Shown: piece after piece, positions 17,600 through 39,672 of the stretch
Numbering within the stretch: the stretch's first letter is position 1
Layout: every line of letters begins with the position of its first letter
Origin: Minisyncoccota bacterium
GTDB lineage: Bacteria > Patescibacteriota > Microgenomatia > UBA1400 > UBA12028
Length of the DNA: 64,000 nucleotides
Assembly (NCBI GenBank): GCA_003487265.1
Contig: DNEP01000006.1
Coordinates: 3,276 to 67,275 of the forward strand
Direction: 5' to 3'
The notes under the pieces: generated by a model
Database searches by the model: none
Told to the model about the DNA's origin: nothing
What the model saw: the letters and a program-made list of their open reading frames with translations, nothing else
Translations under genes and position numbers: made by a program

Positions 17600-17729
17600 A
17601 TATTTTTTCTGTTTCGCACACGAAAAATGTACGAACTATTCGAGGGCGTTTTCAAACCATTTCACTTTTCCACACTACTACAAATACCTACTACTTCTTT
17701 CTTTATCTATTATTAGATACAATGCCACC

Positions 17730-18824: not shown

Positions 18825-18830
18825 AACTTT

Positions 18831-21465: not shown

Positions 21466-22515
21466 TTAGGAGGTTTTCGCGAGAAATTCTAGCGGAGGAA
21501 TAATGGTGTTATTTGTAGTGAGTGTGTAGTTGTTAAATTCGAGGCCGTTTTTTTCTGTGCGAATACTAAAAGCTCCATTTTGTAGGGGGGATGTAATAAA
21601 GAATTGTCCTAATTTGTTCGTTTTGACTGCGCGCACCGCGATGCCCGTTTGATCAACAATTTCCACAATTGCCCCATCAACAATTTTACGATTTTGGTCG
21701 AGTACCATTCCAACAACAACGTTTGGTTGTTTTGGAGTTGATGGGAAGGGGAGACTACTATTTGTTTTCACCGCGATTTCCTGTTGGGTGGTAGTTTTAA
21801 TCACATTTTGTGCAAATGTGTGCAGCGTTTGTGTTGTTTCACCACGTTCTTCTTGTTGTTTTGATTTGTTTTGTGCCGCCTCAAATACGGTGACTTTTCC
21901 CGAAGGTTTAAGGAGGACTGATGAGGGTTGATGTGATTGTTTTTCAGCCGTAGATTGTTGGGTGGTAATAGGTTGGGTTGCTGGAGGAATAACGCGTTGT
22001 ATTTGTGCATGAGGCTTGGATTGTTGTAATGTGATAGGCGTTTTGTTGTTATGAAACAGTTGTGTGATGTTTTTTGAGTTCACAAAAAGATCATTTGGCT
22101 CAGACTGTGTTGAAATGGACTCAAAATACGCGCGAACTCGTTCGGAGCGTCCGATTTTTTGGTCGAGAAGGGGTTGCGATCGATCTCCTAATTTTTGTTG
22201 AATATACGCGAACGCATCTGGAATGCGGATTGTTTTTTTCCAGTAAAATTTTGTTGGTTTGTATATCGCGTGTAGGAACGCAACAACCCATTGATCTAGG
22301 GGGCGTTCTTCGAGCGGAACAAACGCAAACGCCGCTCCTGTGCCAATAATGATAAACACGAGAAAGAGTTTGAGTATGTTTGGAAGCGCGATCGAGTACA
22401 CGAGGAGCGCAACACCAACCGATCCAAGTAACTCGAAGAATTGCTTGAGCGTCATGTTTCCAATGAGGTGAAACTCGTACGCAGTGATATTCTGCGGGAC
22501 AGGATGCTCGATCAT
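21466..22515 (-). CDS. PrgI/VirB3-like membrane protein fused to a C-terminal beta-sandwich (carboxypeptidase-regulatory-like) domain
   Basis: The N-terminus 'EFHLIGNMTLKQFFELLGSVGVALLVY...FVFIIIGTGAAFAFVPLEERPLDQWVVAFL' matches the PrgI-family pattern: a two-TM hairpin ending in 'P-x-x-x-RPLDEW'. The C-terminal 'VVGMVLDQNRKIVDGAIVEIVD...FSIRTEKNGLEF' looks like a CarboxypepD_reg/Cna-B-type fold. Confidence 0.5.
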   Translation of the reverse strand: MIEHPVPQNITAYEFHLIGNMTLKQFFELLGSVGVALLVYSIALPNILKLFLVFIIIGTGAAFAFVPLEERPLDQWVVAFLHAIYKPTKFYWKKTIRIPDAFAYIQQKLGDRSQPLLDQKIGRSERVRAYFESISTQSEPNDLFVNSKNITQLFHNNKTPITLQQSKPHAQIQRVIPPATQPITTQQSTAEKQSHQPSSVLLKPSGKVTVFEAAQNKSKQQEERGETTQTLHTFAQNVIKTTTQQEIAVKTNSSLPFPSTPKQPNVVVGMVLDQNRKIVDGAIVEIVDQTGIAVRAVKTNKLGQFFITSPLQNGAFSIRTEKNGLEFNNYTLTTNNTIIPPLEFLAKTS

Positions 22516-22580: not shown

Positions 22581-23594
22581 TTATTCTGTTTGGATTGCGG
22601 AGGTCATCACCTCAATGGTTGCGGAATTTCCTTCGGCGTCCATTGCTGTTCCTGAAAAAATAGCGAAAGGCATAATGGTGTTTGTTGATGGAATCGTTTG
22701 ATATTCAATGCGCATTGTAAAAAGTTTTGAGGATCGCAATTCTTTTGGGGTGAGTAGTTTTCCGGAAATCTGGTATGAAAGAAGGGAGTATTCCCCATTC
22801 TTCATTGAAGAAATCATCTCTGGAATTGAACGCACATTTGCATGACCGCCATCAACTGGTTGATATGCGACGTTGTGAATGAATATTTTTCGAACATATC
22901 CTTGCGAATCAACAAGAACGGTTGCTGGGTTGTTTGTTGTTCCTGTATGAGAAAACGAATATCCTGAAAAGGAAAGAGAAAAAGGAATAGAAAAATAGGT
23001 TGCCTGCTCTTCGATTGTTTGGGTGAGTTCACTTTCCCCCTTCAAAAATTGAATATTGGAAAGTTGTGGCGCGAGCTCTAATGTTGGAGAAAAGAGCGCG
23101 AGCGCCTCTTTTGCCAGAAGAATCGCTTCTTCTGTGCGCACGGTTTGCATTTCGGTTTGTGGTGGAATATTTCCCGTATACCGTATGGTATTTGTTTCAC
23201 TGTCATAAAAAAGGGAATACCCAAATTCTTTTTGTGTCCACAATGATGTTGATGAGCTTTTTTCCATATTCCACGCTATTGCGAGTTCTTGTAGTTTTGT
23301 GAGTGAAATGGGGGGGAGACTGTTTTGGTTTTGATAAATAGGGAGCGTTTTTGGAAGGGTTGGTGTTGGCCCAATGTATTCAAATGTTTGAATATTTTGT
23401 TCCTGTGTGAGTGTTGTTTGAATGCTGGGCTTTTCGGGAACAACGATTGGGGGTTCACTGGGGAGTGGTTGCCTGTTTTGTAACAGGGTGAGAATGAGTT
23501 GTAAAACAAAAACGAGGATTGTTGCGAGAATAATGAATGTAATAAACCATCGTTTCACCGGAATTTGTTTTTTTATTTGGATGTTTGTATTCAT
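22581..23594 (-). CDS. Bitopic membrane protein (candidate VirB8/PrgL-like component)
   Basis: Single N-terminal TM 'WFITFIILATILVFVLQLILTLL' followed by a ~300-aa extracytoplasmic region. I chose the start at the MNTNIQ codon, which leaves a 4-nt overlap with the upstream gene. Confidence 0.35.
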   Translation of the reverse strand: MNTNIQIKKQIPVKRWFITFIILATILVFVLQLILTLLQNRQPLPSEPPIVVPEKPSIQTTLTQEQNIQTFEYIGPTPTLPKTLPIYQNQNSLPPISLTKLQELAIAWNMEKSSSTSLWTQKEFGYSLFYDSETNTIRYTGNIPPQTEMQTVRTEEAILLAKEALALFSPTLELAPQLSNIQFLKGESELTQTIEEQATYFSIPFSLSFSGYSFSHTGTTNNPATVLVDSQGYVRKIFIHNVAYQPVDGGHANVRSIPEMISSMKNGEYSLLSYQISGKLLTPKELRSSKLFTMRIEYQTIPSTNTIMPFAIFSGTAMDAEGNSATIEVMTSAIQTE

Positions 23595-26440
23595 TCTTCC
23601 TCCTGTTGTGCGCCTTCGGTGTTTTGCGATGCGTCGGGGGAACAAGAAGATGTGACATAATCATTTATCGCAACGTCCGGATCGGGAACGGCCTCAAGAA
23701 TATTGATCCCTAAGGCTTCATAATGAAGGTGATTCCCGGTGGAATTTCCAGTTGAATCGGTTTTTCCAATAAGATCTCCAACTTGTATAGACATGGAACT
23801 GTTTTCTGGCATTCCAGCGAAGTTTAAAAGGTGGGCAAAAATAAACACAAGACCGTCGTCGGAAAGGAGAACGACATGCTTTCCATATCCTGGGTCAAGT
23901 CCATTACCCTCTGCATAAAACAGCGCTTTACCAGAAAATGGGGCGTACACAGGTTCATCTGCTCCAAGCACAATGTCGAGCGCAGATCCAGGCCCAGAAA
24001 CATATTCTCCAGATATGTTTGGAATTGAGGATGTGTACACGGCGTGGGGATCTCCGTTAGTGTAGAATTCCCCCAACTGCGTAACTGTTCCACTTACAGG
24101 CCAGCATCCCACACTTGCAACCCCTTGACCGTGAAGTGTTGAGGTGGGGTCAAGCATCATAATATCCGACTGATTTGCGGTGTTTGCGGTAAAAATACGA
24201 ACCGCGATTAACGCCGGAATGGTGATTGCCATTCCAGATGATGCTGAAAAGATAGGTGATTTGCTTGCAATCGAAGCGCCGACCGAACCCAACCCACTTG
24301 CTCCACCCATCGCCCCCTGTCCTCCAACCGCTCCTGCAACTTTTGAGCCACCCGCAACTCCCGCACTCGTCGCTCCCCCTCCTCCGCCCCCTCCACCCAA
24401 AAATGACATGAGTTTCATTGCCCCCATAGCCATTGCGAGCAAACCACTTGCTATAAGTGCAAGCAAACTCAGCAAGATTTTTACAAGCTTTCCCAATCGG
24501 GAAACAGTGTTGAGAAGAAAATCTTCTGTGGCCTCTCCAACAATGGGAATTTTTCTTAACAACTCAGCATATTTAAACGTCTGGTCTAGCGCGGGAATTG
24601 CCCCCGCTCCCCCAGGGATAAAAGTGAGTGCGGTGGTAAGTGCTTTTTTTCCAAGTTCATAATCCGCTTCGTTAAATTCTCTATTTTGCGCTGTGCTTTC
24701 TCCAGAAATTGCAGGAAGCGCGCCAAACGAATCTGGTTCAGAATAAAAGAAATCAAAATCTTTACCAAAAAACTCACCAGCCGATTCAAGAGAAGTTGAA
24801 CCATGATAATACGCGAGAAAACGCTGCCTTTGTTCTTCGGTGGCCGTTGCCCACGCGTGTTGGGTGCCCAAAATTTTCCCCATTTTATACTTGAGTGCAC
24901 GTTGTGCAGAGGAGAATTCTCGACGTTCCCTCTCATTTTCTTCTGCTTGTAGTTTTGCTTGATTTTCAAGTGCATCTCTTCGAATGTACATTCCGCGAGA
25001 CACAATGCGATATCCCTGAAGAAAAACATCTTCCTCAAGTCCTTTGAGTGAGTTTTGATCGAGTGGGAGTGGAGAATGTACTGCGTTATTGTGTGTGTCA
25101 CGCGCAACACTGTTTCGCACGAGTCGAATATATGCGCTAAATGACTCTGCCCAATCTGTATCATAAATGGTGTGCAAGAAGGGGAGAATGCGCGACCGTT
25201 CTTCGTCGGTTAATAAATCTTCAAAAATTCTCTCAAATTGTTTTATGTTAATCGTGTCGATGGTGTGTCCAGAGATTGCCAAGGTTTGGAGTCGAACCAT
25301 AATTCTACGAATGTCGGACTCGGGAATGTTTGCTTTTTGCAAAAGTTGTTCAAGTTGTTCCTCCATAAAAGCTGTTGACGCTTGAGTGGTCCACCCAGCT
25401 TTTTCGAGTTTTTTCTGATCGATGTTTTGAAGAACTTTGCCCGCAGTTTCATCTTCAATAATTGCTTTTACAAGATCCTCAATCTTGGGAGGTTCAACGT
25501 TATTTTTTGCAAGCGAGGTGAGCTGTGTTTTGAGCGACAGTTGAAAATGTGCATCAAGTGAGAGTCGCTGCAAACATTGGATGTACAGTTTTTGCCGTCC
25601 GTCAAACGAGGTGAGCGTGCGAATCAAATCTTCACCGGTGAGTTGTGATAACTCAAATAAAACTATATTTGAGGTTGCGGGAAGGAGGTCGCTGATAAAC
25701 TTTTCGCGTTCTTGATCGTCGGTTATGCCGTATGAAATCGCTAGTCGTGCAAGAAGTGACTGTCGAACGAGGGTAACCTGATTCCGAAGCTCTCTGTCGG
25801 ACTTTAAGATGTCTGTTAACGAAAGATTTTGTTTTTCTTCTTCTTTTTCTCGCTTTTCTTCTTCTTTTTTGTCTTTCTCTTGCATTGCGGGGATCGCAAT
25901 CCCAGCGGATCTCGGTTGATCGCCTGCCGCCACAGGTTGTTCCCCAACCGCCGCCTTTTCTTCTTCGGTTTGTGGCGATCGCAATTCTTCTTCTGATAAA
26001 TCATGCGCTTCCCGCGCAATTTCAATAAGCGTTTCAGCCTCGCGCAACTGTGTGAGAAGATCTGAAAGTTTTTGATCGGGAGAGAGGCGACGTTCTATAC
26101 TGTATTCTTCAAAAATTTCATGCCCGAACAAATCATGATCGACTTTTTTTGGAATAATATAACGAATGGTGAGAATGAGCACCCAAAGTTGATTAAATGA
26201 CAACCTTCCCAGCGTTTGATCGTCGGGGTGATCAATCATCTCGCGAAGCATTGCTTTGTATCCACCGGAGGTTTGAATGCGGGATAAAACGCCCAACGAA
26301 CGATCCGCGAGATCATATGATCGCTTCATGTAGTCGCGCAACGCATACGCGACCTTACTTATGTTTTCATCTTGAAGGTGTTCGCGGGTAAAAAATGATC
26401 GAATTGGCGCGCTATCCAGCATACGCGTATTGTACCGCAT
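23591..26440 (-). CDS. Large membrane protein with a C-terminal M23 (LytM) peptidase domain
   Basis: 949 aa. The C-terminus 'GYGKHVVLLSDDGLVFIFAHLLNF...IGKTDSTGNSTGNHLHYE' matches the M23 zinc-site H-x-x-x-D ... H-x-H arrangement. A poly-Gly/Ala segment ('GGGGGGGGATSAGVAGG...') is flanked by two TM helices. The N-terminal ~600 aa are helical with a KE-rich coiled coil. Confidence 0.65.
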   Translation of the reverse strand: MRYNTRMLDSAPIRSFFTREHLQDENISKVAYALRDYMKRSYDLADRSLGVLSRIQTSGGYKAMLREMIDHPDDQTLGRLSFNQLWVLILTIRYIIPKKVDHDLFGHEIFEEYSIERRLSPDQKLSDLLTQLREAETLIEIAREAHDLSEEELRSPQTEEEKAAVGEQPVAAGDQPRSAGIAIPAMQEKDKKEEEKREKEEEKQNLSLTDILKSDRELRNQVTLVRQSLLARLAISYGITDDQEREKFISDLLPATSNIVLFELSQLTGEDLIRTLTSFDGRQKLYIQCLQRLSLDAHFQLSLKTQLTSLAKNNVEPPKIEDLVKAIIEDETAGKVLQNIDQKKLEKAGWTTQASTAFMEEQLEQLLQKANIPESDIRRIMVRLQTLAISGHTIDTINIKQFERIFEDLLTDEERSRILPFLHTIYDTDWAESFSAYIRLVRNSVARDTHNNAVHSPLPLDQNSLKGLEEDVFLQGYRIVSRGMYIRRDALENQAKLQAEENERERREFSSAQRALKYKMGKILGTQHAWATATEEQRQRFLAYYHGSTSLESAGEFFGKDFDFFYSEPDSFGALPAISGESTAQNREFNEADYELGKKALTTALTFIPGGAGAIPALDQTFKYAELLRKIPIVGEATEDFLLNTVSRLGKLVKILLSLLALIASGLLAMAMGAMKLMSFLGGGGGGGGATSAGVAGGSKVAGAVGGQGAMGGASGLGSVGASIASKSPIFSASSGMAITIPALIAVRIFTANTANQSDIMMLDPTSTLHGQGVASVGCWPVSGTVTQLGEFYTNGDPHAVYTSSIPNISGEYVSGPGSALDIVLGADEPVYAPFSGKALFYAEGNGLDPGYGKHVVLLSDDGLVFIFAHLLNFAGMPENSSMSIQVGDLIGKTDSTGNSTGNHLHYEALGINILEAVPDPDVAINDYVTSSCSPDASQNTEGAQQEEE

Positions 26441-28337
26441 TTGATTGTTCGGTTGCTGCGGCAGTAGGTGTGTGTGCGGGCGATGATTTTGTTGGAGCGT
26501 CTGTGCAGTTTTCGCAAATGTATCCCATTGTTATGAATGGGTTGTACGAAACTCCCGCAAACGATGCGATAAAGTTGTCAACTCCAACGTAGCCGTGCGA
26601 AGTTGTGGTTGAAAAAACGCCGTCTTTCTCTTGTTTTTCAGCTCCTTTACCTAATGTGTCCCTCATTTCGCATGCAAAACACACATCGCATTCGCCAACT
26701 CCACCATCAAGGTGTTTGTAATGAAACTTTCCATCGTTGCACATTTTACATGTTCCATCGTGCCACGCCGTTTCCCATCGTTTGGGTTTGTTGTGATTGA
26801 TGATTCGAATTTTTTCGTCGAGCGTGAGTGATTCTGTTCGAACGGCGCGTTGAAACTCTTCAAGCGAAGAAAAGCGCGATGGAATGCCCAAACCAAGGCT
26901 GTTTGTAGAAATGGAAGAAGCAAAATTGGGATTTAATCGTGTTATTCCTCCGGCTGATCCTGCGGTACAGTCAACAACGCTCACAACCCTTTTTAACACA
27001 TGACTCATTGAGGTATTTTGAAACGAACTAAAAAGGGCGTTGCGCGCAGAAACAAGCGCGGTTCCTTTATGTGATTGAAACACTTCCGGTTTTGCAACTT
27101 TTTCATATTGTTCCCATGCAACCGCGGAATCAAACATTTTTTGTTGCAAAATCGTGTTGAGCGCGACCTCGGCATTCATAAGAATAAGCGCCTCGGCTTG
27201 ATCAATAGAAATGTGTTTTTTCAATAACAATCCCCACACATCAAGAAAAATATCTGTGAGAAACTGTGATGACTCAGCAATAATCGGTTGATAGATCGTT
27301 CTAAAAAGATTCATCGCCTCTTGTTGTGCGACCGCGAGTTGCGCAATCTCCTCGGCGGGAAGCGCGTTTGTGAGAAGTGATGAAAAAAACGGCTCAACCT
27401 CTTCATATGCGAATGGGGGGTGAATAATGTGCGCGCGCATGATTTCCGATTCGGTGGGCGCCGAAGATGTGCGAGATGCCGAAGCCTCCCCCACCCCCCA
27501 CGTTTTCACAAATTCTGATATTGCTTGCGCGTGTTCTTGATGGGAAAAATCGTTGAATGCTTGATGAAGTAAAATAATCCACGCGTCTTTTGTGGGGAGA
27601 TAGCAGACACGATACACATTCCAAAATGATTTTCCCTCTTTGTAGGTTTGCGTATTAGACGGATACACCGCGAAAACTGGCGGGCCTATGAGTACGGGGG
27701 GGCGCTCGTTGGCATCTAGTCCGAGTCCCGCAAGCGCCTCGGTGGGAAGGGGCGCGGTGTACCACCCCCAACCCTCGGGTGGGGTGGGGAGAGGTTCATC
27801 TTCAGATTGCGCGAGTGCGTTAATATACGTGTGCGCAACTTCCGGTAGATTTTCCGCAATAAACTGCAAAAGTTCGAGCGTCTCGATAGCAAGGCGTTCC
27901 TCTTTTTTATATCGGTCCTCAAACGGATTTCCCAAGGCAGATTGAAAATTGGGATTTCGTCTTGCGTACTCAATCGCCTTTTTGCACTGTTCGCGGATTG
28001 TTCCACTATACAAAGGCAGTGCGGCATCCCATTTTCCCTGTTCATTTACAAGCGGAATCATTGCGGTTTCATGAAAGGGAAGGTGGAGTTCTTCTTTAAT
28101 CGCCGACTCAAAAATAAACTGCAGGTGAAGAAAAAACTCATGCTCGATTTTTTCCCAATTTCCCTCATGTTTCCCAATTAATTCTGCGCCTTTTGAAGCC
28201 CATGCGTGAAATAGGTTGAGAAGTGCGACGCGCGTGAGTTGAGAATATTCCGAGGTTTGTAGTGCGCGTTTTTCAACGGCTTGACGCAGTTTTTTTGTTT
28301 CAGTTCTAGATAATTGTGGTTGAAGATGTTCTCGCAT
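26412..28337 (-). CDS. Large hypothetical protein with a Cys-rich (zinc-ribbon-like) C-terminus
   Basis: 641 aa with no TM segment. The C-terminal cluster 'CKMCNDGKFHYKHLDGGVGECDVCFACEM...CENC' is zinc-ribbon-like. It is co-oriented with the M23 gene and overlaps it by 29 nt. Confidence 0.4.
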   Translation of the reverse strand: MREHLQPQLSRTETKKLRQAVEKRALQTSEYSQLTRVALLNLFHAWASKGAELIGKHEGNWEKIEHEFFLHLQFIFESAIKEELHLPFHETAMIPLVNEQGKWDAALPLYSGTIREQCKKAIEYARRNPNFQSALGNPFEDRYKKEERLAIETLELLQFIAENLPEVAHTYINALAQSEDEPLPTPPEGWGWYTAPLPTEALAGLGLDANERPPVLIGPPVFAVYPSNTQTYKEGKSFWNVYRVCYLPTKDAWIILLHQAFNDFSHQEHAQAISEFVKTWGVGEASASRTSSAPTESEIMRAHIIHPPFAYEEVEPFFSSLLTNALPAEEIAQLAVAQQEAMNLFRTIYQPIIAESSQFLTDIFLDVWGLLLKKHISIDQAEALILMNAEVALNTILQQKMFDSAVAWEQYEKVAKPEVFQSHKGTALVSARNALFSSFQNTSMSHVLKRVVSVVDCTAGSAGGITRLNPNFASSISTNSLGLGIPSRFSSLEEFQRAVRTESLTLDEKIRIINHNKPKRWETAWHDGTCKMCNDGKFHYKHLDGGVGECDVCFACEMRDTLGKGAEKQEKDGVFSTTTSHGYVGVDNFIASFAGVSYNPFITMGYICENCTDAPTKSSPAHTPTAAATEQSNAVQYAYAG

Positions 28338-28675
28338 GTGATCTTTCTGATGTGATTCTTCGTGCGAGCGAGGAAATCTATCAAACGATCACAGGAGCAG
28401 TGCTGTGCGTAGCGCTTGAATCCGAAGCCCCACACGATGTCTCGTTCCTGGCTTAGGTGTTGCTTTCGAAAAGCGACACCCACACAGTTGCGGTACAGCC
28501 CGCGATTTACACGCGGTTCCGAGTAGATCCACTATGATCGAGTCGAGGAAAGATTGCAAGAGGGTGATGTGCGTTTTGTGCGCGCGTGCTTTGCGCGCCT
28601 TGAATCTTTTTCGAACCGCCCCTTGATTTTCCAGATGATTCCCTGATATGAATAGATACAGAAAGTGAGGCGAAT

Positions 28676-30313
28676 ATGGCGGATGACGGAATGGATGCAA
28701 GATTAGCCGAACAACAGGCGGAAAGTAAAGCGCAAGATCAAGCATCACAACAAGAAAAACAATTAGATCAAGATGAGCAACGAAACGAATACATTCAAAA
28801 ATTAGTACAAACCGATCAAATACAAACTCAATCTGATAGTACATTTTCAAAACCGTTGAAAAGTGGCGATCACCTGTATTACGTAACACAAGATCAGGAT
28901 CCATACATTTTGACCGGCGGTCGTGTATTTGTTCACGCTTGGCAAACAGAACGCGCCAATCAGCGAAAACAAAACTTTTCGTATGATGAATTAATTTCTT
29001 GGACGACGTTCATGAAAAATCACCTCGACTTGGTTGGGCGAAAAGGAGGAGATGACACAACTGAGCTCGATCAAGAAATTGAGTTGTTTACTCAAGACGA
29101 TTTATGGATGCGAACAACGCTCGAACTTCAAGTGTTACTCGATAAACAAACCATACTTCAAGAGGAAAAACAAAAAGGAGTGATTTCAGAAATTCAGTAC
29201 TCTGAATCTACCATTGATTCGCAAATTAAAGACAAACGTCATCAACTCGCCACAGTCGAAGAGCAGTTATTTCAACGATACGAAGCAATATATTCACCTC
29301 AGAAACGATTGCATATTGAACCCGAGTTGTTGAACACACTTCTCCCGCAAATCGAAGCGCTATTTGCTCAAGAGGGGGAGGTTGATATCACGGCCGTGCG
29401 CGCGATGTTGCTTTCTTTACATCTCGACGAAGCGGCCGTCGATTCGTTTCTCAAAAGCCCCGCAACACTTTCATTTCGAGATCGACTTGGATTTTTTCTA
29501 TTGGGTCAGACGGATCTTCGTGAACAATCACCGCTCGGAGAAAACCAGAAGAAATTGATTTCGCTCATCACCGAAGATCTCAAGCGCGTTGCCGAAAAAG
29601 TGATGACACAAAAAGGAATTCTTCCAACCGACACCATCGATATTGCCGTAGACAAATTTACCGAAGGGATGCTTCCTTCTCAAAAAGCGTGGATGGAGCA
29701 ACGCGTCAAAATACTCGCGGCGGGCTCGTTCATTGCAGGAAACTCTGATATTAAGGCGCTGTTAGACTTTATCATTTCTGGACAAACGTATGGTGGACAC
29801 ATGGAAGGCCGGGATGAGTTGATGAAAAAAGGGCTTCCAACGGTTGGAAAAGAACATATTGTAAAAGTAGCCGATAGTCCCGAACAGGCGTTTTCGGTCG
29901 TTGAACATTCATTGAAAAACTTGTGTGAAGACTTTTCCGATGCATCCGATGAGGAGGGAAATAAAATTTTCTCTCTCATGGCAACGCATAAAGATCAACA
30001 GAAATTCATGAAGAAGAAAGAGGGGTCGGAGGAGGAAGAGTTCGACTTTACTCTTTATAAAGAGTGGGTTATGAACACATTTCTGTATCTTATCCGCAAT
30101 GATGGCTACAAAGAAAAAATTGAAAAATCAGTCGCAATATCGCTTTTTGATGCAGGTTTAAGGGAAGTTACGCAACAAAAAAATGACGGATCCCAATCAG
30201 AGGTGCGTTTCGATACCGCCGAACAAGCGGGTCGAGAAATGAAGCTCAGCCTCGAAGCGATCGAGCTCCTCCTTCAGCGCGCCAACGCTTGGAATGGAGT
30301 GCAAAAAGAATAG
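28676..30313 (+). CDS. Large hypothetical acidic/coiled-coil protein
   Basis: 545 aa, no TM or signal peptide, Q/E/K-rich N-terminus, no recognisable catalytic motif. Confidence 0.4.
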   Translation: MADDGMDARLAEQQAESKAQDQASQQEKQLDQDEQRNEYIQKLVQTDQIQTQSDSTFSKPLKSGDHLYYVTQDQDPYILTGGRVFVHAWQTERANQRKQNFSYDELISWTTFMKNHLDLVGRKGGDDTTELDQEIELFTQDDLWMRTTLELQVLLDKQTILQEEKQKGVISEIQYSESTIDSQIKDKRHQLATVEEQLFQRYEAIYSPQKRLHIEPELLNTLLPQIEALFAQEGEVDITAVRAMLLSLHLDEAAVDSFLKSPATLSFRDRLGFFLLGQTDLREQSPLGENQKKLISLITEDLKRVAEKVMTQKGILPTDTIDIAVDKFTEGMLPSQKAWMEQRVKILAAGSFIAGNSDIKALLDFIISGQTYGGHMEGRDELMKKGLPTVGKEHIVKVADSPEQAFSVVEHSLKNLCEDFSDASDEEGNKIFSLMATHKDQQKFMKKKEGSEEEEFDFTLYKEWVMNTFLYLIRNDGYKEKIEKSVAISLFDAGLREVTQQKNDGSQSEVRFDTAEQAGREMKLSLEAIELLLQRANAWNGVQKE

Positions 30314-30336
30314 AACAGATGTGGTAAAATAAAGAT

Positions 30337-33300
30337 ATGTTTCCAAGTCCAGAAAGCGTTCGATATCCAGAGCAAAGTAAAATACTTGCGCTGAGGAATT
30401 CAAATTTTACTCTCGAAGATATTAACGAGATCGTTGAACTTTCAAGATATATACAAAATCCTGCCATTCCCTACAATGCTGACCAATCGGAAAGAATTGC
30501 ACAGCTAATTACACAATGGAGAACGGGACACCCAGCGCCTACTACAAGTTACGAGGCAACGGTAAATGAAATCTTTGATCTTCTTGAGTATTACTTATCA
30601 CAAAAATCCGTACCCCAGCCTTCAGAAACTGCGCCTGAGCTTGAACCCCAAACTGATAGCGAGCATCTTGGTTCAGTAGAAATAGATGGTGTGAGACTTA
30701 CCCGAGAAGAATATTTTCTCTATCTTGAATCAGTGGGATTCGTAAACAAAAAATTCCGAGATGATAATTCTAAAACATCAGAAGCCTATAATAATGAACT
30801 TTCTGCGTTATATCAATCAGTAAATAAGGTATTGAGTTTTTGGAAAGTGATCGCTTCCCAAGGACCAAATCAGTTTTTAGAAGCAAGTATCGCTCAATTG
30901 GAGAAAGTTTTACATCAGTTCGAGAACACAAAAAAAGAAACTCCTCCAGACAGCGAGGAGAGAAGGCGTCAACTTGTTCATGATATTGTTGCGAACATTA
31001 ATTCGAGAATTGGGGATGAAAAGTACAAGCTTGACTATTCCGCTCTCCGATTTGATCAACAGGAGGGGTTAAATAAGAATGAGCAAACTTTCCTCCATAA
31101 TTTTTTCCGTTTTTTGTTTATGGATGTGTTCAATGAGCGTATTTTAAATAATCCAATTAAGGATGAAAATGGATATCCAAAACTACATTCCGATGTGAAT
31201 TTGTATGATATTACGATTGCAATGGTTGTGGGTATGGATGGAGAAGAATCGACATATTCATTATTAAAATTACTTGATAACATTTTCCCAACAAACATCA
31301 TAAGATCAGCGTTTGAAGAAAAGAATTCGGGGACGTTTGGCAATCGTTTGCTATTCATGCATAAATTACTTTCAATGGAAAGAAAAATTAATAGCATTCC
31401 TTTTACATTTGATTATTTCAAAAAGATGTTTGGGTCTACGAATTTAGGTGGAATACTTGATGATCCGACATCGAATAGTTACTCGCATTATTATCGAAAA
31501 TTTCTGATGAGAGCAATGAATAGACCCGTACTAACAAAAGGCTCTCCTGCATTTTTTGCTGAGCCAGATGAGATGAAAACTTTTAAAGAACATTTAGGGG
31601 AAAAGGATGATTTTTATCTTGGTGTGTTCATTGATTATTTTTCAAATCATCTTGAAGCACATACCGCAATGACAATTCAAAAATATCTTGCACAGGGAAG
31701 ACTTGATCTAATTGAAAACTATCTTGATGACCAAAAATCGACAAATAAAGGGAAATATCGAAAATTTATTACGCCAATAAAACAGAGATTAAATGAAATC
31801 ATCGATGCTCTTCCAGAAGAATACGATAAGAAATACATTAAGGAGCTAGCCAAATGGGCTTTTGTTTTCGCATCATACAGATGGTCATGTAATTTGGGTA
31901 AATTGAGGGCAGACCCTGCAGCAATTCTCGGGGATGAATGGGGACGTGTTAATCATGGATACATGGAATACAAAATGAAAGAAGACGCAAACCGAACGAA
32001 GCGCGCAAGAAGAACGATGAAAAACTTGTTATACGCCCCACTCATTTCATTAGAGCAATATCTCGGAGTTAAAGTTAAGCTTCCCATTTCGTGTATAGAA
32101 CTAGTATATCCTCAAGAATATGATGAAGAAACAAGAAAAGATCTTCGTAAGAAATTTCATAAAAAAGTGTATCACGAACAGACAAAAACGACTACCGATT
32201 TTACTGATGAACGAATTCTTAAACACACAATAGGAATACGCTTTAATCCAGACAAACTTCCAAAAGACTTTGATCCTGTGCTGATGAATGTATACAAAAA
32301 CATGAACCGTAAATTGATCATTCTGCACAAATACGATTTTTCCGAAACACAAGAAGCAGGAATCGTTAAAAATGTGGACACTCAGAGAGCTCGATTGAGC
32401 GCATGCGAAAAGATTCAAAGTGGATCGCTTGTTAAGATACTGGAGAATCCAAACATATCAAGAAAAGAAATATCTGAGATTGTTACTTTATTGCGAGTCA
32501 TTACCGAGATTGAATCCAGCAATCCTATCTTCAACGAAATAAAGAAATCACTTCAAGAGAAAATTTCAGAGATTCAGCGTGGAACTCCCAGTTCATATCC
32601 GAAATTAAGTGATTTGTTGAAAGAACTTGCTCGCACGCCACAAGCAACAGAAGTTTTGTATGCTGAAATTGTATCAAAAGAAACAAGATTACATTTTACG
32701 CAAAGTGAAAACAATCTTCCTGCCCATTTAACCGAAACACTCGCAGTTGCGGAAACAGTATCTATGGGTATTCCAAGGGAATGGGTAATTTGGGAATCCA
32801 TGAACGATAACGCGACGAAAATTTATTCAGAGGCTATGGAATATGTGGCGGCGTTTGCAAAAATGATGTTGTATACAGACCACAGTCCTTTTCCCGATCC
32901 ATCGGTAATGTTGGGGAAGGTTTCTTTAAAAAAGACCGCCTTACAAGCGTGGACAAGCGAAAAAGTTCAAGAATATGTGCATTTTACTGACGAGTGGATT
33001 AAACGTGCATCAATTCAAATCAGTGGGATTAATACTGAGGAAACGAAGAAAAAAATTGAAGAATTCAGCAAAGAACTCGAGTTACGATATACCTGCGCAC
33101 CTATTACGAACAATGAACTTGCATTGAAGACTACGGTTGAAGGAAAAAATCCAGATGACGGAGATGGTCTTGCATATATCATTCAAAATTTGGGGCAATA
33201 TTTCTCGACGGCGTTACTTGCCGGACAGCCGGAAGATGGTGACAAACGACTTTCCTTCTTTATGGATATGTTTAGGGGTGGACATGATCTAAAAATCCGT

Positions 33301-33846
33301 CAAGAATTTCAAGAATTTGTTCGCAATGTGAATAAAAAATCAAAAATGAAACTAGGTGAATATAATTTTTTTACTGCTATCGTGATGTCGTTATTCGAGC
33401 TGTATTTGGATGATTTTGAACCAGACAGAAAAGATGATGAGTTTAATTCAAAAGAACTGTCACATATCGCATTAGCACTTGCTGATCCAAAAAATAAACA
33501 AATAGTGGAATCAGTCATTCCTTTGTTAAAACGAATATCGGAGGCTGGAGAGCAGAAAATTACCGAAAAATCCTTAATTCTTGGGCCAAAGGAGCGCGTT
33601 TTTGTTCGAAAGCTGTATCAAAGAATTATTCAAGAATTACACCTCTTTTTTAGTACGAAAGGTTCCCAAGCGGATATGCCTTCTCAGTTTGTGAAGGATC
33701 CTGTAAATGATGTTATATATCTATCTCCTTCCTATTTGGATCAAGAGCTTCGTTCACGAAGAATTATTGGGACAATTCAATACTTCAAAGATTCGTTATA
33801 TGAAAAACCACTCCACTCAGAAGAAAAAGACGGAAAAGGACATTAG
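30337..33846 (+). CDS. Very large hypothetical protein (1169 aa), predicted cytoplasmic
   Basis: Long uninterrupted ORF with good coding character, no signal peptide or TM, and no recognisable motif. Confidence 0.45.
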   Translation: MFPSPESVRYPEQSKILALRNSNFTLEDINEIVELSRYIQNPAIPYNADQSERIAQLITQWRTGHPAPTTSYEATVNEIFDLLEYYLSQKSVPQPSETAPELEPQTDSEHLGSVEIDGVRLTREEYFLYLESVGFVNKKFRDDNSKTSEAYNNELSALYQSVNKVLSFWKVIASQGPNQFLEASIAQLEKVLHQFENTKKETPPDSEERRRQLVHDIVANINSRIGDEKYKLDYSALRFDQQEGLNKNEQTFLHNFFRFLFMDVFNERILNNPIKDENGYPKLHSDVNLYDITIAMVVGMDGEESTYSLLKLLDNIFPTNIIRSAFEEKNSGTFGNRLLFMHKLLSMERKINSIPFTFDYFKKMFGSTNLGGILDDPTSNSYSHYYRKFLMRAMNRPVLTKGSPAFFAEPDEMKTFKEHLGEKDDFYLGVFIDYFSNHLEAHTAMTIQKYLAQGRLDLIENYLDDQKSTNKGKYRKFITPIKQRLNEIIDALPEEYDKKYIKELAKWAFVFASYRWSCNLGKLRADPAAILGDEWGRVNHGYMEYKMKEDANRTKRARRTMKNLLYAPLISLEQYLGVKVKLPISCIELVYPQEYDEETRKDLRKKFHKKVYHEQTKTTTDFTDERILKHTIGIRFNPDKLPKDFDPVLMNVYKNMNRKLIILHKYDFSETQEAGIVKNVDTQRARLSACEKIQSGSLVKILENPNISRKEISEIVTLLRVITEIESSNPIFNEIKKSLQEKISEIQRGTPSSYPKLSDLLKELARTPQATEVLYAEIVSKETRLHFTQSENNLPAHLTETLAVAETVSMGIPREWVIWESMNDNATKIYSEAMEYVAAFAKMMLYTDHSPFPDPSVMLGKVSLKKTALQAWTSEKVQEYVHFTDEWIKRASIQISGINTEETKKKIEEFSKELELRYTCAPITNNELALKTTVEGKNPDDGDGLAYIIQNLGQYFSTALLAGQPEDGDKRLSFFMDMFRGGHDLKIRQEFQEFVRNVNKKSKMKLGEYNFFTAIVMSLFELYLDDFEPDRKDDEFNSKELSHIALALADPKNKQIVESVIPLLKRISEAGEQKITEKSLILGPKERVFVRKLYQRIIQELHLFFSTKGSQADMPSQFVKDPVNDVIYLSPSYLDQELRSRRIIGTIQYFKDSLYEKPLHSEEKDGKGH

Positions 33847-33898
33847 TATCATCCGTTAACTACGTGTTTGCAAAGATTTTATTATCGAATTGCTTGTG

Positions 33899-35548
33899 CT
33901 ATTTCAGATCTTCAATTGGAATATCTGCGTAGCCCTCTGGGAATGAAGTTTGTGGTGCGTCAGTGTATGTATTTTCAACTCCAGAGCTTGTCTTCGATTG
34001 AAGATTCTTTTCCTGTAATCCTTTATAAACGCGAGTTCCATACTTCCCACCTCCCATAAACACACCATCTTTCATCCATCCTGGGGTGGACTTCACAAAC
34101 TTCGTTCCACCTGCCAGACCGCCGGCGCCGGGGATTCTGCTCCATTCCATGCCGGGAATAATCTTGTCGCCTTCCCAACCTTTAGTCAAATTCTTCTGAA
34201 TTTCTGGGATGTATTTTTCAAAGAAGCCTTCTTTGGCTCCGGACATTTCCTTTGCGATCTTGATGGAGGAGGGGAGCATCATGAGAATTCCGAGTGCGAT
34301 CAGCGCTTGGGTGGCTCGCACGGCCTCCTGTGTGGAGGCGTTTCTTCCATCTGAAATCAGTGGGGGCATAAATCCACCAGATGTTGATTGATATCCGATA
34401 TCGCCTTTTCCAAATCCTCCAAGTGTCATCGCGAGTAACAGCATCACGAGTACGACGGGGAATGGGAGAAGGCGACCGATCATATTCTTGATCCACTGCA
34501 TAAACCCACCCCCTTGCTCGAGAAGCGTGTTCAGCGCAAGCTCGATTGGTGAAAAAATCAAAGAAACAAGAAAACCAACATACGACTTTACCAGTTCAAA
34601 CCACGTTTGAATGACAACAAACAGCAACGCAATGGAAAGGACAACATTCATCAAAATATTTGAGGTGAGCGAAAGCGCAGAAGAAAACCATTTAATCACT
34701 TCTGGCCCAGAAAGGACGCCGTCGACCATATCACCAACGCCGCTACCAATTGTTTGAATCATGGATCCGTTTGTGCCGCCACCATTCCATACCGCTCCCC
34801 AACCGATTGCGAAGATGCTTTGCGAAAATGCGATCTCGGTTAAGGAGACTTCGACTCCGCCGATTTTTGGATTGTTCATCAAACCAGAAAAGATTCCAAC
34901 AAATAAGTACATCGTCACGTACATCAAATCAACAATTAATCCGGCAATGGCGTAGGAAAAAGTTACAATGATCAAGCTGACAACAACGCGCGGGATTGCG
35001 GTTGCAACGGTCATCACGGCTTGGCCGCCGAGTTTTTGGCGGAAAATAATCGCAAACCCAATCACCACAAAAAATAATGCATAAAATCCGTATGCGACGT
35101 TCAAAAATGTTTTCCAGATTGGAAGAATGGGGGTGAGACTCGCAAAACCAACGCCTCCCACACTTTGTGCGTACGCGGGAGGTGCAAACTTTGAGTGTTG
35201 CGCTAAATCTTGAACGTATTGGCCAACGCCCGCGGGGGGAGTGCGATACATAAACGCAATTGCCCGACCAAATCCAGAAATCGCGCTGTCCTTTGATCCA
35301 CCAGTCGTGTTTGCAATTGAGGCCATATCAAGTAAGAATCCGGTTTTACGCCAACACTCCATAGAAAGGGAGCCTGTTTGCTGACAATGATCATATGCAG
35401 ACTCAGCTGAGTCCATCGTGGGAAAATTGTATTTTTCATCTTCTTGTGCGTATGTTGTTGGAACAGAAACAATAAGTGACAGGAGAATGCCCGAAAAAAA
35501 GATCGCTCCCATTGTAAACACACTAATAAATCGGCGCATACTCACCAT
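33899..35548 (-). CDS. Polytopic membrane protein, VirB6/TrbL-like candidate
   Basis: 549 aa. A signal-peptide-like N-terminus is followed by a periplasmic segment and then 6 or more TM helices rich in G/A/I/L/V ('VMTVATAIPRVVVSLIIVTFSYAIAGLIVDLMYV...'). This is the VirB6/TrbL-type topology. Confidence 0.45.
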   Translation of the reverse strand: MVSMRRFISVFTMGAIFFSGILLSLIVSVPTTYAQEDEKYNFPTMDSAESAYDHCQQTGSLSMECWRKTGFLLDMASIANTTGGSKDSAISGFGRAIAFMYRTPPAGVGQYVQDLAQHSKFAPPAYAQSVGGVGFASLTPILPIWKTFLNVAYGFYALFFVVIGFAIIFRQKLGGQAVMTVATAIPRVVVSLIIVTFSYAIAGLIVDLMYVTMYLFVGIFSGLMNNPKIGGVEVSLTEIAFSQSIFAIGWGAVWNGGGTNGSMIQTIGSGVGDMVDGVLSGPEVIKWFSSALSLTSNILMNVVLSIALLFVVIQTWFELVKSYVGFLVSLIFSPIELALNTLLEQGGGFMQWIKNMIGRLLPFPVVLVMLLLAMTLGGFGKGDIGYQSTSGGFMPPLISDGRNASTQEAVRATQALIALGILMMLPSSIKIAKEMSGAKEGFFEKYIPEIQKNLTKGWEGDKIIPGMEWSRIPGAGGLAGGTKFVKSTPGWMKDGVFMGGGKYGTRVYKGLQEKNLQSKTSSGVENTYTDAPQTSFPEGYADIPIEDLK

Positions 35549-35627: not shown

Positions 35628-38228
35628 ATGCGCACGCGAGGTATTTTGTTGATGATTGTCTCTTCGAGTTTTCTTGTTGTAATGGCGTTTTTTCGTCTTT
35701 CTTTTCCATATTCCGCGCATGCGGTGGTCGAAAAATCCATTCCGTTTATTTTTCCTGGGCCCGATGATGCGTTTTTGAACTGTTCTGGTGATAAAGAAGA
35801 ATGTTTTCGAGAGTCCGCCTCACAGTACATTATGACGTGCTCTCCAGAAATCAAGTTGCAGGCGCAGGTTGATCCTGAAAAAATCAATGAACCTATTATG
35901 ATTGACGGAACAGCAACAACACTTGCGGAATATTGTGGAACTGATCCAGAAAATGCAAACTGCGTGTTCAATCCCGTAAGTGGATCGGTGACAAGTCTTG
36001 TACCGAAGTCCGCGAATACCTCACTGTATCGCACAACACAATCTTCGGGGAAGGTACTGAAGGGGAGAACGGAAAGTCTGGAAGGTTTTTTGGCGGGAGA
36101 TGCGGATCCCGAAACGATATTTGATGCAGGTCCATCAAGAAAAATCCAAACCGTGCAACAAAACTGTTCACAGAGTATTCGCTATCTTCTTGCGGTTGAA
36201 TCACTTTGCCGAGAAGAAACGCAGCAAGGCGAGTTTTCCCCAGGGTTCCAGACGCAAAGCGTTATTGATCAATTTTTGAATCAATTTAGTCAGCAGTTCC
36301 AAGGGTGTTCACTTAACGAAAAGATTGGAGATACTTCGTACGCTGAGTTGTTGAGCGCTGTTCGAGAGCGAGCCGGCGGTGAAGGAAAAGAGGAGTTGTA
36401 TTGTCGTTTACCCGAATACCTCGATCCCGACTCTGCGGCAAATAATGACTTGGGAAAGAAGCAGGAATACATTGATAGAGCAAGCAAAATAGACAGTCTG
36501 CGCCCAATCTTGGATCGCGCGTTTTCAAAAGGATACTTGGCAATCGCCAATCAAAAAGGAACGGTGTATTCGGTGATTCCCGTGCTAATTCCTTCGAGTT
36601 TGGGATTGTATGAACAAAACTTTCCCGTGCTTTCTGGTTCAAACAATGTCGGGTTTAATGGACCGCTTCGACAATTAATGAGTATGTATATTACTCAAAG
36701 TCAACTGATGGCGATGCAAGACCAACAAAATCTTGCACAAGAAAAGATTGCGCAAACCATGCGTGCAATCGACAATGAACAACTTGATATAAGTGCGTCT
36801 CCGTACATTGATCCAAATTTTTGTTCAAATCCAAGTACCGACGCGCAAAAAATCGCGTGCCTTTTTGCAGACCGCATAAATGCTGGAATTGCCAACAATG
36901 AGTTTGAAGGACCGGATGGAAATACAACCTGTACATTTTCACCTACAAAAGCCGATGCGGAAACAGCAAAAAAACTGTATTCATCTACGAAGCCGAACTT
37001 TTTAACCACACTGTTTTCCTTTTTTTCACCACCCGATGAATCGTTTTCTGGCACACCTGTTGTATCGCAACCTCAGGTACAAAATGATTCCTCAATTCGT
37101 TCGTTTTTGCTTGTTCCATGCGCCGATTTTTGTTTGATTCGATATACAGAAAAAGCTTTGTTTGGTGCGATGGCGGACACAAACTATGCTTCAAACATCG
37201 AACAACACATCAAAGAAGGAAACTATAAAAGCAATGGCTTTTTGCGATTGTCTGGCATTGCTCCAAAGATCACCTCGTACGTATCCGAAAAAACTTTTCC
37301 TTCTGTTTCTGGATCTCCTGTAACAATTTCTGCGGAGATTGTGCCAACAGGAGACGCAAATCCGTTGATGTTTGGAGGATGGCTTGCTCAGTTGTTTTAT
37401 CTTTACACCGCGGGAGTGACCGCGGATGTAGATTCGCCAGCAAGAGCAGAAACATATCCCACACTTGAAACATACTGGACATCATTCAAAAGCGAATCAT
37501 CGCAGTCAACGGGGACATTTGAGTATTGTTCAGATTACAAAGATCCGAATGATGAAAATGCGTGGATCACTGTTGACGTTCCCACGATCCCAGAAATTAA
37601 ACAGCTCGCCTGTTCCACTGCAGAAAAATACAACGTTCCCGCCTCGATGCTTTGGGGAATATTTCAAATTGAGTCGGGATATGACAACACAAATGTGAGT
37701 TATATCAATATTGCATCGCGCCTCGATCCTGATGTAACAACCTACGCGTGTTCTTTGCAAACAGATGGAAGTTTTAAGCCATTAAATCTCATGGTCAACG
37801 ATTGTCGTGTGAATCTTCCCGAGTTTTTTCCAGATGCGAATCCTCCGCTTTCGGCGCTCCCCGCAAATGGCGAGTCAGAGTTTGTTCGGGGAAGAAATGT
37901 GTGCGAAATCGAAGTAGCGTTCGATGTGATTGCGCAAAGTCTTGCGACCTACAGTAAGGCGAAAACTTTCCAATATCCCGCAGGATCAGCGAAAGCGGGA
38001 ACGCCAAATTGGTACTGGTTGGCTGGTCAGTTTGGTGTTGGCGGAATTATTCAAGAATTTAAACAACAAGAAGAACCATACAAATGCGCCATCCCCGAAG
38101 GTGGTCCGTATGAAAAATGGGCGCATGTAAGCGGGTGTTATGAAAATCAACAAACGCTTTCTGGGGCAAATGTCGATTACTGTACTTGTTTAGTTGAAAA
38201 CTTCCCATTGGATTGTTCAAGTTTATAA
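35628..38228 (+). CDS. Secreted Cys-rich 866-aa protein with a lysozyme-like (SLT-type) motif
   Basis: N-terminal signal peptide 'ILLMIVSSSFLVVMAFFRLSFPYSAHA' and more than 25 Cys residues. The segment 'ASMLWGIFQIESGYDNTNVS' resembles the catalytic E-S block of lytic transglycosylases; this assignment is weak. Confidence 0.4.
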   Translation: MRTRGILLMIVSSSFLVVMAFFRLSFPYSAHAVVEKSIPFIFPGPDDAFLNCSGDKEECFRESASQYIMTCSPEIKLQAQVDPEKINEPIMIDGTATTLAEYCGTDPENANCVFNPVSGSVTSLVPKSANTSLYRTTQSSGKVLKGRTESLEGFLAGDADPETIFDAGPSRKIQTVQQNCSQSIRYLLAVESLCREETQQGEFSPGFQTQSVIDQFLNQFSQQFQGCSLNEKIGDTSYAELLSAVRERAGGEGKEELYCRLPEYLDPDSAANNDLGKKQEYIDRASKIDSLRPILDRAFSKGYLAIANQKGTVYSVIPVLIPSSLGLYEQNFPVLSGSNNVGFNGPLRQLMSMYITQSQLMAMQDQQNLAQEKIAQTMRAIDNEQLDISASPYIDPNFCSNPSTDAQKIACLFADRINAGIANNEFEGPDGNTTCTFSPTKADAETAKKLYSSTKPNFLTTLFSFFSPPDESFSGTPVVSQPQVQNDSSIRSFLLVPCADFCLIRYTEKALFGAMADTNYASNIEQHIKEGNYKSNGFLRLSGIAPKITSYVSEKTFPSVSGSPVTISAEIVPTGDANPLMFGGWLAQLFYLYTAGVTADVDSPARAETYPTLETYWTSFKSESSQSTGTFEYCSDYKDPNDENAWITVDVPTIPEIKQLACSTAEKYNVPASMLWGIFQIESGYDNTNVSYINIASRLDPDVTTYACSLQTDGSFKPLNLMVNDCRVNLPEFFPDANPPLSALPANGESEFVRGRNVCEIEVAFDVIAQSLATYSKAKTFQYPAGSAKAGTPNWYWLAGQFGVGGIIQEFKQQEEPYKCAIPEGGPYEKWAHVSGCYENQQTLSGANVDYCTCLVENFPLDCSSL

Positions 38229-38696: not shown

Positions 38697-38785
38697 ATGT
38701 GTAGTTTAACATACGAACGACCGCTTCTGCATTCGCAGAGATTCGCAAGATGTTTACTAAACCGATTCGAGTACCAATTTGAGTA

Positions 38786-38815
38786 CAAAAAGGCCCCGTT
38801 TTTCAAGCGGGGCCA
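38786..38815 (-). terminator. Rho-independent terminator after the paralog array
   Basis: On the minus strand the GC hairpin GGCCCCGC-(loop)-GCGGGGCC is followed by a T-run. It lies directly after the stop of the 38847-39188 gene. Confidence 0.6.
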
Positions 38816-38846
38816 AGGTTTTCAAAATGTATGAAGTGAGTGTGTA

Positions 38847-39188: not shown

Positions 39189-39270
39189 GTATTCCTCCTT
39201 AGACTATGTGTGCATTTTACCTTGTTTACGTGTTCGGTGCAAGCGGGCGGTGTTTCCCGCGGTTTCGCAT

Positions 39271-39669: not shown

Positions 39670-39672
39670 ATC

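Follow-up and report, generated by a model that had tools for sequence, protein, structure and literature searches.

A predicted cobalamin riboswitch and three fast-evolving genes in a type IV secretion system-like locus of Patescibacteria

The subject of this work is a 64,000-nucleotide stretch of the genome of a Minisyncoccota bacterium (GenBank assembly GCA_003487265.1, contig DNEP01000006.1, positions 3,276 to 67,275), called the window below, and within it a locus resembling a type IV secretion system (T4SS) that holds three large open reading frames (ORFs) of 641, 545 and 1169 aa, named ORF641, ORF545 and ORF1169. We propose, with a probability of roughly 55%, that these ORFs are genuine, lineage-restricted and very fast-evolving accessory genes of the locus, which lies at the side of oriC, and that ORF641 leads an operon repressed by vitamin B12. 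The central feature is a predicted cobalamin riboswitch between ORF641 and ORF545, which was overlooked in an earlier reading of this DNA made from its letters alone (the sequence-only reading).

The riboswitch and the operon that it heads

The ORF641 leader matched the full RF00174 model of Rfam with 37.5 bits (gathering threshold 31.5; E = 6.5e-6 across the 64 kb of the window), and 84 nt separate the matched element from the ORF641 ATG downstream. For comparison, 80 Patescibacteria loci were retrieved with VirB4 (65–79% identity). Each of the ORF641 homologues first tested presented an Rfam cobalamin-clan element directly upstream, above threshold in locus L044 and below it in L001 and L003. 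Among the relatives, the gathering threshold (in parentheses) was exceeded in L044 by RF01689 with 40.4 bits (36.5), in L039 by RF01482 with 51.4 (50) and in L088 by RF00174 with 31.7 (31.5). With the window copy, curated thresholds are passed by four copies, across three members of the CL00101 clan (RF00174, RF01482 and RF01689). Sub-threshold matches to the same clan, of 27–39 bits and either top-ranked or the sole low-E matches, occupy the same position in L001, L003, L083, L085, L086 and L090. A regular expression for the aptamer core matched solely on the VirB4 strand, 8–10 kb upstream of VirB4.

A dedicated model, R1, was built from an alignment of 13 copies (A5), with a four-helix structure drawn from the Rfam AdoCbl-II consensus. 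R1 scores the window riboswitch at 67 bits and, over 1.46 Mb, gave 15 matches, each of them heading the operon on the VirB4 strand, with zero elsewhere. On the contigs of further members of the ORF641 family (L083, L084, L085, L086/L087, L088 and L090/L091) it gave seven more matches, in five distinct loci, each directly 5′ of an ORF641 homologue. The riboswitch is present in 20 distinct loci, the window and 19 others, where it stands at the head of the same operon or in front of an ORF641 homologue; all 20 copies are on the sense strand, 2–161 nt upstream of the first ORF.

The helices are supported by covariation. In the alignment of the 20 sequences (A7), 89% of the cells were paired, compared with 35–41% when the partners were slid; 81 cells carried double changes, and 0 of 500 shuffles scored as high. 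Over A5 and A7, the 18 pairs were 88–89% paired, 11 of them with double changes, and the slid controls reached 32–46%. The conserved core reads GGAA ... GUGNAANUC ... CUGUGCCGCAAC ... AGUC(A/C)GG, the last element being the B12 box. That this RNA is real and belongs to the cobalamin class is very likely, binding of the ligand being predicted. It shares with the riboswitches of CL00101 the conserved core, the B12 box, the covarying helices, the location in a 5′ leader and, in many copies of the relatives, a putative platform with a terminator-like hairpin or a sequestered Shine-Dalgarno (SD) sequence. Known cobalamin riboswitches act on B12 synthesis, B12 transport and B12-independent isozymes, whereas the targets here are a soluble protein with a Cys cluster and a T4SS-like operon.

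This operon is a six-gene unit in the order ORF641, M23 hydrolase, o354, PrgI/VirB3, TrsD-like o231 and VirB4, with overlaps or gaps of −29, −55, 65, 9 and 40 nt along the unit (Table 1). No terminator-like site on the operon strand lies within the intergenic gaps. Promoter and terminator scans matched the shuffled expectation and were not used as evidence. Of the 80 VirB4 loci, 13 bear the riboswitch (the thirteenth, L064, recognized by R1), and these have the same gene order; the M23 gene is the conserved second gene of the operon in the relatives. The sequence-only reading had placed the three ORFs between T4SS genes, which is correct for the locus and imprecise for ORF641, since this gene heads the M23 operon and overlaps the M23 gene by 29 nt. 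We somewhat favour an extension of the riboswitch control through to VirB4.

Downstream of the aptamer, the leaders of many relatives present a conserved GACGAGCAUCGG ... CCGAUGCUCCUC ... GAGGAGC, a U-run and the start codon, and their putative platform is a terminator-like hairpin that buries the SD-like GAGGAG, plus an upstream competitor. In the window, the minimum free energy (MFE) hairpin pairs CCUGUGAUC with GAUCACAUG and covers the ORF641 start codon. In L003, L060 and L086 the mechanically called ORF starts 2–6 nt past the aptamer, and the true start may be further downstream in L060 and L086. Nearly all cobalamin riboswitches are OFF switches, and the platform layouts of the relatives are typical of these. 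An OFF logic, in which B12 represses, is likely, and for the window we infer it by analogy. Under this logic, enough corrinoid, presumably not made by the cell and taken from the host or the surroundings, would fold the aptamer and prevent ORF641 from being translated and/or transcribed; translational coupling and polarity would shut off the T4SS genes downstream as well. When B12 is scarce, the machine would be built.

The ORF641 family

When ORF641 was compared exhaustively by phmmer with 1.8 billion representatives, 21 hits were obtained, 4 of them below 1e-30; these proteins have 556–664 aa, except two of 317 and 333 aa. In the VirB4 loci, the homologues found by phmmer and jackhmmer are always located immediately upstream of the M23 gene. 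A candidate fusion of ORF641 to the N-terminus of larger M23 proteins, in loci without ORF641, was rejected, as the jackhmmer matches were to separate ORFs only. At ~20% identity, the residues E82, R142, E146, E296, C457, C530, C533, G548-E549-C550, C553, C556 and E557 are invariant or nearly so.

The Cys-rich C-terminus described in the sequence-only reading is indeed present (Cys 530, 533, 550, 553, 556, 608 and 611), the first five of these residues being those that the family keeps (near-)invariant. The cluster is laid out as C457; C530-x2-C533 ... G548-E-C550-x2-C553-x2-C556-E557, and conservation at C530, C533, C550 and C553 is complete or at least 90%. The reading of this region as a zinc ribbon is plausible: as in zinc-ribbon or treble-clef Cys4 sites, two CxxC-type pairs ~17 residues apart (C530/C533 and C550/C553) are conserved in the family, together with C556. 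The differences are that no Pfam zinc-ribbon model matched ORF641, that C457 and C556 leave an iron-sulfur (Fe-S) or other metal site possible, and that the branch comprising the family member P0018 and the first genes of L039, L060 and L067 has GPC in place of the motif.

An AlphaFold2 (AF2) model from 21 sequences reached a mean predicted local distance difference test score (pLDDT) of 69 and a predicted template modelling score (pTM) of 0.61. It comprises a mixed alpha/beta and helical body (residues 1–450) and, after a disordered linker (451–481), a small module with the Cys cluster and a tail (563–641) that is also disordered. Foldseek with this model found no significant match in PDB or BFVD. 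Among the top non-significant matches in both collections (E 0.3–2), export chaperones of the SecB or SecB-like type came up repeatedly, which gives a weak lead on the beta-sheet part. Comparison with B12 families (BtuB/F/G, ECF-CbrT, MetE, NrdD/NrdJ, CobW and others) revealed no similarity of sequence or fold. ORF641 is a small, fast-evolving family, which is new and has no known fold.

The riboswitch accompanies 15 of the 19 distinct loci of this family. It also precedes a first gene that could not be related to ORF641 by profile in L023, L039, L060, L065 and L067; the products of these first genes have either 219–233 aa, or 613–712 aa with a GPC motif replacing the Cys cluster. In L039:456–2594, L060:845–2794, L067:300–2141 and P0018 (L090:2229–4148), a C-terminal G-x-GC ... 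GPC replaces GEC-x2-C-x2-CE, and these first genes may be a divergent branch of the ORF641 family that lost the Cys module.

ORF545, ORF1169 and the surrounding locus

The ORF listing reproduced exactly the coordinates, strands and lengths that the sequence-only reading gave for the three ORFs. Several of its other descriptions also agree with our results: no transmembrane (TM) segment was found in any of the three (no hydrophobic segment above 1.6 on the KD-19 scale), nothing significant was found for them in Pfam, PHROGs, PADLOC or the PDB sequences, ORF545 is acidic (17.6% D+E, pI 4.8), and the neighbours are the M23 hydrolase and VirB4 on one side and a VirB6-like protein with seven TM-like segments on the other. 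The single Pfam match of ORF545, NleF, was sub-threshold (E = 0.031). ORF545 and ORF1169 are 100% identical to UX04_C0002G0028 and UX04_C0002G0029 of 'Microgenomates group bacterium GW2011_GWF2_45_18'. Word-indexed homology searches, which were the searches used for ORF545 and ORF1169, gave self matches only for the three proteins; for ORF1169 the self hit was the only one among 5.8 billion clusters. A metagenome scan with an 8-sequence alignment returned two loci only. By arithmetic from composition, the chance probability of 1169 stop-free codons at ~37% GC is ~1e-35. Given this value for ORF1169, and the homologues of ORF641 and ORF545, the three are not chance ORFs.

ORF545 and ORF1169 run divergently from the 338-bp intergenic region shared with the operon, toward the VirB6-like gene. 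The arrangement [o866-like][VirB6-like][large ORF][ORF545-like][ORF641-like] recurs in L082, L083, L086 and L093. The genes divergent from the ORF641 homologues in L081, L082, L003, L083 and L085 form one family, and hhalign matched residues ~352–537 of ORF545 with the C-terminal domain of the L081/L082/L003 family (3-sequence profile; probability 93%, E = 3e-7, 172 columns). With a 5-sequence profile the same comparison gave a probability of 61% (E = 8e-5), and this profile matched L086_549 with a probability of 94%. The N-terminal parts of the ORF545-like proteins are acidic and not alignable.

In the position of ORF1169, ORFs of 848 (L082), 874 (L083), 879 (L086) and 981 aa (L093) share the orientation and lie between the ORF545-like and VirB6-like genes; where the leader gene is missing, the slot is filled by ORFs of 719–799 aa. 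These proteins are mutually recognisable only for L082 and L083. Homology of ORF1169 to its slot-mates was not accepted on two short collinear motifs (542–579 and 804–825; hhalign probability at most 4.5%), and its single-sequence AF2 model (pLDDT 37.7) was unusable. The pattern reflects either extreme divergence or repeated replacement. The GC content is 37% over ORF1169 (window 30000–34000) and 42–47% in the flanks. In a close relative, genes of toxin-antitoxin type (AbiEii with a 216-aa partner, PIN and BrnT) separate the riboswitch operon from the ORF545-like gene (L082:7433–9530 and 1231–1845; L081:1749–3845), so this gap tolerates insertions.

The identity of the window proteins to their L082 counterparts describes a gradient of rates, from VirB4 (76%) through o231 (54%), PrgI (41%) and o549 (37%) to ORF641 (27%), M23 (27%) and o354 (26%), with no match by BLASTP for ORF545 and ORF1169. 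The three ORFs are therefore evolving far faster than the core, which fits proteins of host interaction or accessory proteins.

Table 1. Features of the T4SS-like locus and their positions in the window
Feature	Position	Strand	Evidence
Cobalamin riboswitch aptamer (predicted), compact class-II-like core at 28435–28529	28422–28570	−	Rfam RF00174, model R1, covariation
Expression platform (inferred), ORF641 leader	28338–28421	−	MFE fold
ORF641, 641 aa, first operon gene	26412–28337	−	ORF listing
949-aa protein, M23 peptidase domain at the C-terminus, role of a VirB1-like wall hydrolase	23591–26440	−	Pfam PF01551, E 1.8e-12
o354, conserved operon member with a single TM segment	22581–23645	−	Hydrophobicity and relatives
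PrgI/VirB3-like, CarboxypepD_reg-like C-terminal domain	21466–22515	−	Pfam PF12666, E 2.4e-8
o231, probably TrsD/TraC-like homologue of the VirB4 N-terminal region	20761–21456	−	Weak Pfam TraC_F_IV, E 0.004
VirB4 ATPase, last operon gene	18831–20720	−	Pfam P-loop_TraG, E 4.5e-25; CagE_TrbE_VirB, E 7e-5
ORF545, 545 aa, acidic, soluble, divergent from the riboswitch operon	28676–30313	+	ORF listing
ORF1169, 1169 aa, orphan, predicted all-alpha	30337–33846	+	ORF listing
o549, polytopic, VirB6-like only in topology and position, 7 TM-like segments	33899–35548	−	Hydrophobicity; no Pfam match
o866, 24 Cys, N-terminal hydrophobic segment, outer neighbour of the module	35628–38228	+	Composition; L086 homologue
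Eight small tandem ORFs, 6 of 8 matching the VirB2-like T4SS pilin model	38256–41536	−	Pfam PF18895

Regarding the other genes of the locus, the counterpart of o231 by position in L086 is annotated as PF26593 (TraC-like), and o231 is conserved in 70 of the 80 loci. Homologues of o549 hold the same position in L082, L083, L086, L093, L028, L052 and L055. The protein o866, for which Pfam gave no match, is weakly homologous to L086_1219 (1219 aa, same position; E = 2e-12) and probably acts in the locus as a secreted or surface protein. The six PF18895 matches of the pilin array span 38256–41127; the array is followed by PilO and PilN genes (41533–42884) and by the gene for a sigma factor of the extracytoplasmic function (ECF) type (42896–43507).

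The genes dnaA and dnaN (16045–18824, NCBIfam) abut the VirB4 gene. Since dnaA, dnaN, valS, yidC, the transfer-messenger RNA (tmRNA) and tRNAs are all encoded in the window, and a nucleotide search against phage and plasmid collections gave zero matches, the window is the chromosomal origin region of a candidate phyla radiation (CPR)/Patescibacteria metagenome-assembled genome, neither a plasmid nor a phage. The cumulative GC skew has its minimum at ~16–18 kb, at dnaA/dnaN (window 14000–18000), which fits a replication origin beside the T4SS operon. Elsewhere in the window, the tmRNA gene is located at 51601–51999 (−). A tRNA-Ser(UGA) at 50334–50423 (−) also exceeds the Rfam threshold for tRNA-Sec and is probably just a tRNA-Ser with a long arm. 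An 806-aa protein with a weak Baseplate_J-like match (61024–63444, −) adjoins a sortase gene (60184–61002, −).

A survey of Patescibacteria T4SS loci (Quinonero-Coronel et al., Microb Genom 2025; PMC12102498) described VirB4, TrsD, PrgI, VirB6, an M23 VirB1-like protein and VirB2 arrays beside dnaA; it reported VirB2-like arrays for Microgenomatia, where VirB6 is hard to detect. The window resembles this MPF-FATA-related locus (MPF, mating pair formation) in VirB4, the TrsD-like protein, PrgI/VirB3, the M23 hydrolase, the candidate VirB6-like protein, the pilin array and the adjacency to dnaA/dnaN. It is also alike in that no relaxase or type IV coupling protein (T4CP) was matched in Pfam or NCBIfam among the scanned window ORFs, which were most of those of at least 150 aa. 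Differently from our findings, the survey has no genes of the ORF641, ORF545 or ORF1169 type and mentions neither 'riboswitch' nor 'cobalamin' (PMC12102498), whereas 13 of our 80 sampled loci add the leader gene and the cobalamin riboswitch. With the conjugative T4SSs of Gram-positive bacteria (pCF10 prgH-prgK and pIP501 tra), the locus shares a VirB3-like protein, VirB4, a large peptidoglycan hydrolase and the lack of outer-membrane core genes. It differs from them in that no relaxase or T4CP was found nearby, in its chromosomal, origin-adjacent location with extra orphan genes, and in a control based on RNA rather than on pheromone or repressor.

Competing explanations and biological meaning

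We tentatively propose that ORF641 would bind metal (zinc-ribbon-like) and work in the cytoplasm as an accessory or adaptor for that part of the machine which holds the ATPase and the hydrolase, and that ORF545, with its conserved C-terminal domain and variable acidic N-terminus, and ORF1169, as a hypervariable slot, would be host-specific partners or cargo. A series of observations weighs against the proposal of a B12-repressed operon led by ORF641 and against these protein roles. In the window, the platform has no intrinsic terminator and its fold is no better than shuffles (z −1.2). The riboswitch is present in only 13 of the 80 VirB4 loci, and ~35 VirB4 loci with at least 9 kb of upstream DNA have neither the leader gene nor the riboswitch; because it is absent from most T4SS loci, B12 control is no general property of the machine. 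Within the ORF641 family, the loci L089, L092, L093 and L094/95 are without it. In L086 (811-kb scaffold, 10001–20350), the T4SS genes are inverted, in the opposite-strand order VirB4, M23, 357-aa protein, PrgI and TraC-like, and converge on the riboswitch-led ORF641 homologue; this locus is rearranged in relation to the window, and with such a convergent layout its riboswitch can control the ORF641 homologue only. In L089, the 10 kb on each side of the family member P0016 contain no T4SS gene, and no cobalamin element accompanies it. The ORF641 model is moderately confident, with a pLDDT of 53–76 in the Cys region. Finally, our view of the genome covers 64 kb, and any B12-dependent enzymes or transporters elsewhere in the genome would lie beyond it.

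These points also bear on the claim of the sequence-only reading that the three ORFs belong with the T4SS, for which occurrence in genomes without T4SS-like genes was named as contrary evidence. The association holds in so far as the order of the module recurs in relatives; P0016, with its T4SS-free 10 kb on each side, and the separate, convergent transcription unit of the L086 homologue go part of the way to such a case, and to that extent the claim is weakened. The 338-nt leader of the P0016 gene (L089:9663–10000) gave no Rfam or R1 match and ends in a GC-rich hairpin and T-run (CCCCG...CGGGGTTTTT) right before the ATG; it could be a different leader RNA or an attenuator. Among the loci without riboswitch, several have an opposite-strand gene preceding the M23 gene, and in L009, L027 and L048 a same-strand ORF of 617–658 aa reaches the edge of the fetched DNA, so that a riboswitch could lie beyond. 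Considering L086, L089 and the first genes outside the family, what the riboswitch accompanies most constantly is the position or family of the leader gene, and T4SS control follows from the operon structure in most loci, not in all.

A different role for ORF641 would be that of a protein of the B12 economy (corrinoid binding, trafficking or salvage, or a B12-independent substitute for some B12-dependent activity). The riboswitch would then exist for ORF641, and its position in front of T4SS genes would be secondary; we consider this rather improbable. Genes behind B12 elements, as a rule of comparative genomics, serve B12 supply or replace B12-dependent enzymes, and such a protein would agree with the rule. 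The riboswitch accompanies most distinct loci of the family, including L086, where the homologue is the sole gene of the unit, and the invariance of E82, R142, E146, E296, C457, C530, C550 and E557 at ~20% identity suggests a defined binding or active site. As described above, ORF641 resembles none of the B12 families compared. The RNA itself might instead be a relic, or a derivative of cobalamin riboswitches with another ligand or no regulatory role, as several copies fall below the Rfam gathering threshold, the compact aptamer carries a variable inserted hairpin and the window platform is unconvincing. This is very unlikely, since neither the core nucleotides nor the B12 box vary, compensatory changes keep the helices though the downstream proteins are only ~20% identical, four copies pass curated thresholds and the placement directly 5′ of the start codon is kept strictly.

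The sequence-only reading regarded all three ORFs as possible translocated substrates or effectors of the T4SS. They are soluble, large, without signal peptide and inside the locus, and the extreme turnover, with unrelated large proteins in the same slot, is as expected under host-driven diversifying selection. Nothing, however, shows secretion: the shared C-terminal signal that this reading suggested looking for was not found, as the last 40 residues have no common motif or charge bias (net charges −2, −2 and 0), and no coupling protein was matched among the scanned ORFs. The ORF641 family keeps a conserved core and is found in L089 with no T4SS genes as neighbours, and protein export by the Patescibacteria T4SS is itself not established (PMC11665869). 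Therefore, we regard an effector role for all three as unlikely.

A variable island, in which ORF545 and ORF1169 are horizontally acquired, selfish or defence-type cargo of a permissive gap, appears more doubtful still. It is consistent with the GC content of 37% over 30–34 kb against ~44% around, with the AbiEii, PIN and BrnT toxin-antitoxin genes in the same gap of L081 and L082 and with the mutually unrelated large proteins of the slot. On the other hand, PADLOC and PHROGs were empty for ORF545, ORF1169 and the slot-mates, bar one marginal SspB match (L093_981), and no match was found in phage or plasmid collections. In L082, L083 and L086 the order, the orientation and the size class (~450–740 aa, then ~850–1170 aa) are kept, L093 keeps the order and orientation with a smaller middle gene (391 aa), and ORF545 shares its domain with its counterparts. 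This conservation argues for vertical descent with rapid divergence.

Returning to the accessory genes of a B12-repressed locus, the cobalamin riboswitch and the Patescibacteria T4SS locus are each known; as far as can be told, what is new is their pairing, along with the two protein families. In full-text searches, no paper joined riboswitch, cobalamin and Patescibacteria, and none relevant was found for the combinations with CPR or VirB4. The T4SS is widespread in Patescibacteria, many of which have such a chromosomal locus next to oriC. In a Saccharibacterium, the sole species tested for epibiotic growth, the T4SS genes are reported as essential and their role is described as 'completely unknown'; inducible expression systems are explicitly sought for Patescibacteria (PMC11665869).

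It is conceivable, as a speculation, that in a sizeable subset of the Patescibacteria the B12 of the host or community gates the T4SS-like machine, and that starvation turns on ORF641, the hydrolase, VirB3 and VirB4. The machine so gated, with ORF545 and ORF1169, would obtain B12 or other nutrients from the host or commit the cell to an attack on it, and ORF641 would represent a T4SS factor of a new kind, controlled by a riboswitch.

The ~7 kb that the sequence-only reading called functional dark matter is resolved into a riboswitch-controlled family with a Cys cluster, a family with a C-terminal domain and a hypervariable slot, and each of the three ORFs has positional orthologues usable for deeper structure prediction. 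An RNA that senses a metabolite, standing at the operon head, supplies the first concrete and testable statement on the timing of the machine, whose production would fall in conditions of low B12. The predicted riboswitch ties the T4SS-like machine to the auxotrophic lifestyle of these bacteria, and it would offer a native, ligand-controlled expression element for the Patescibacteria.

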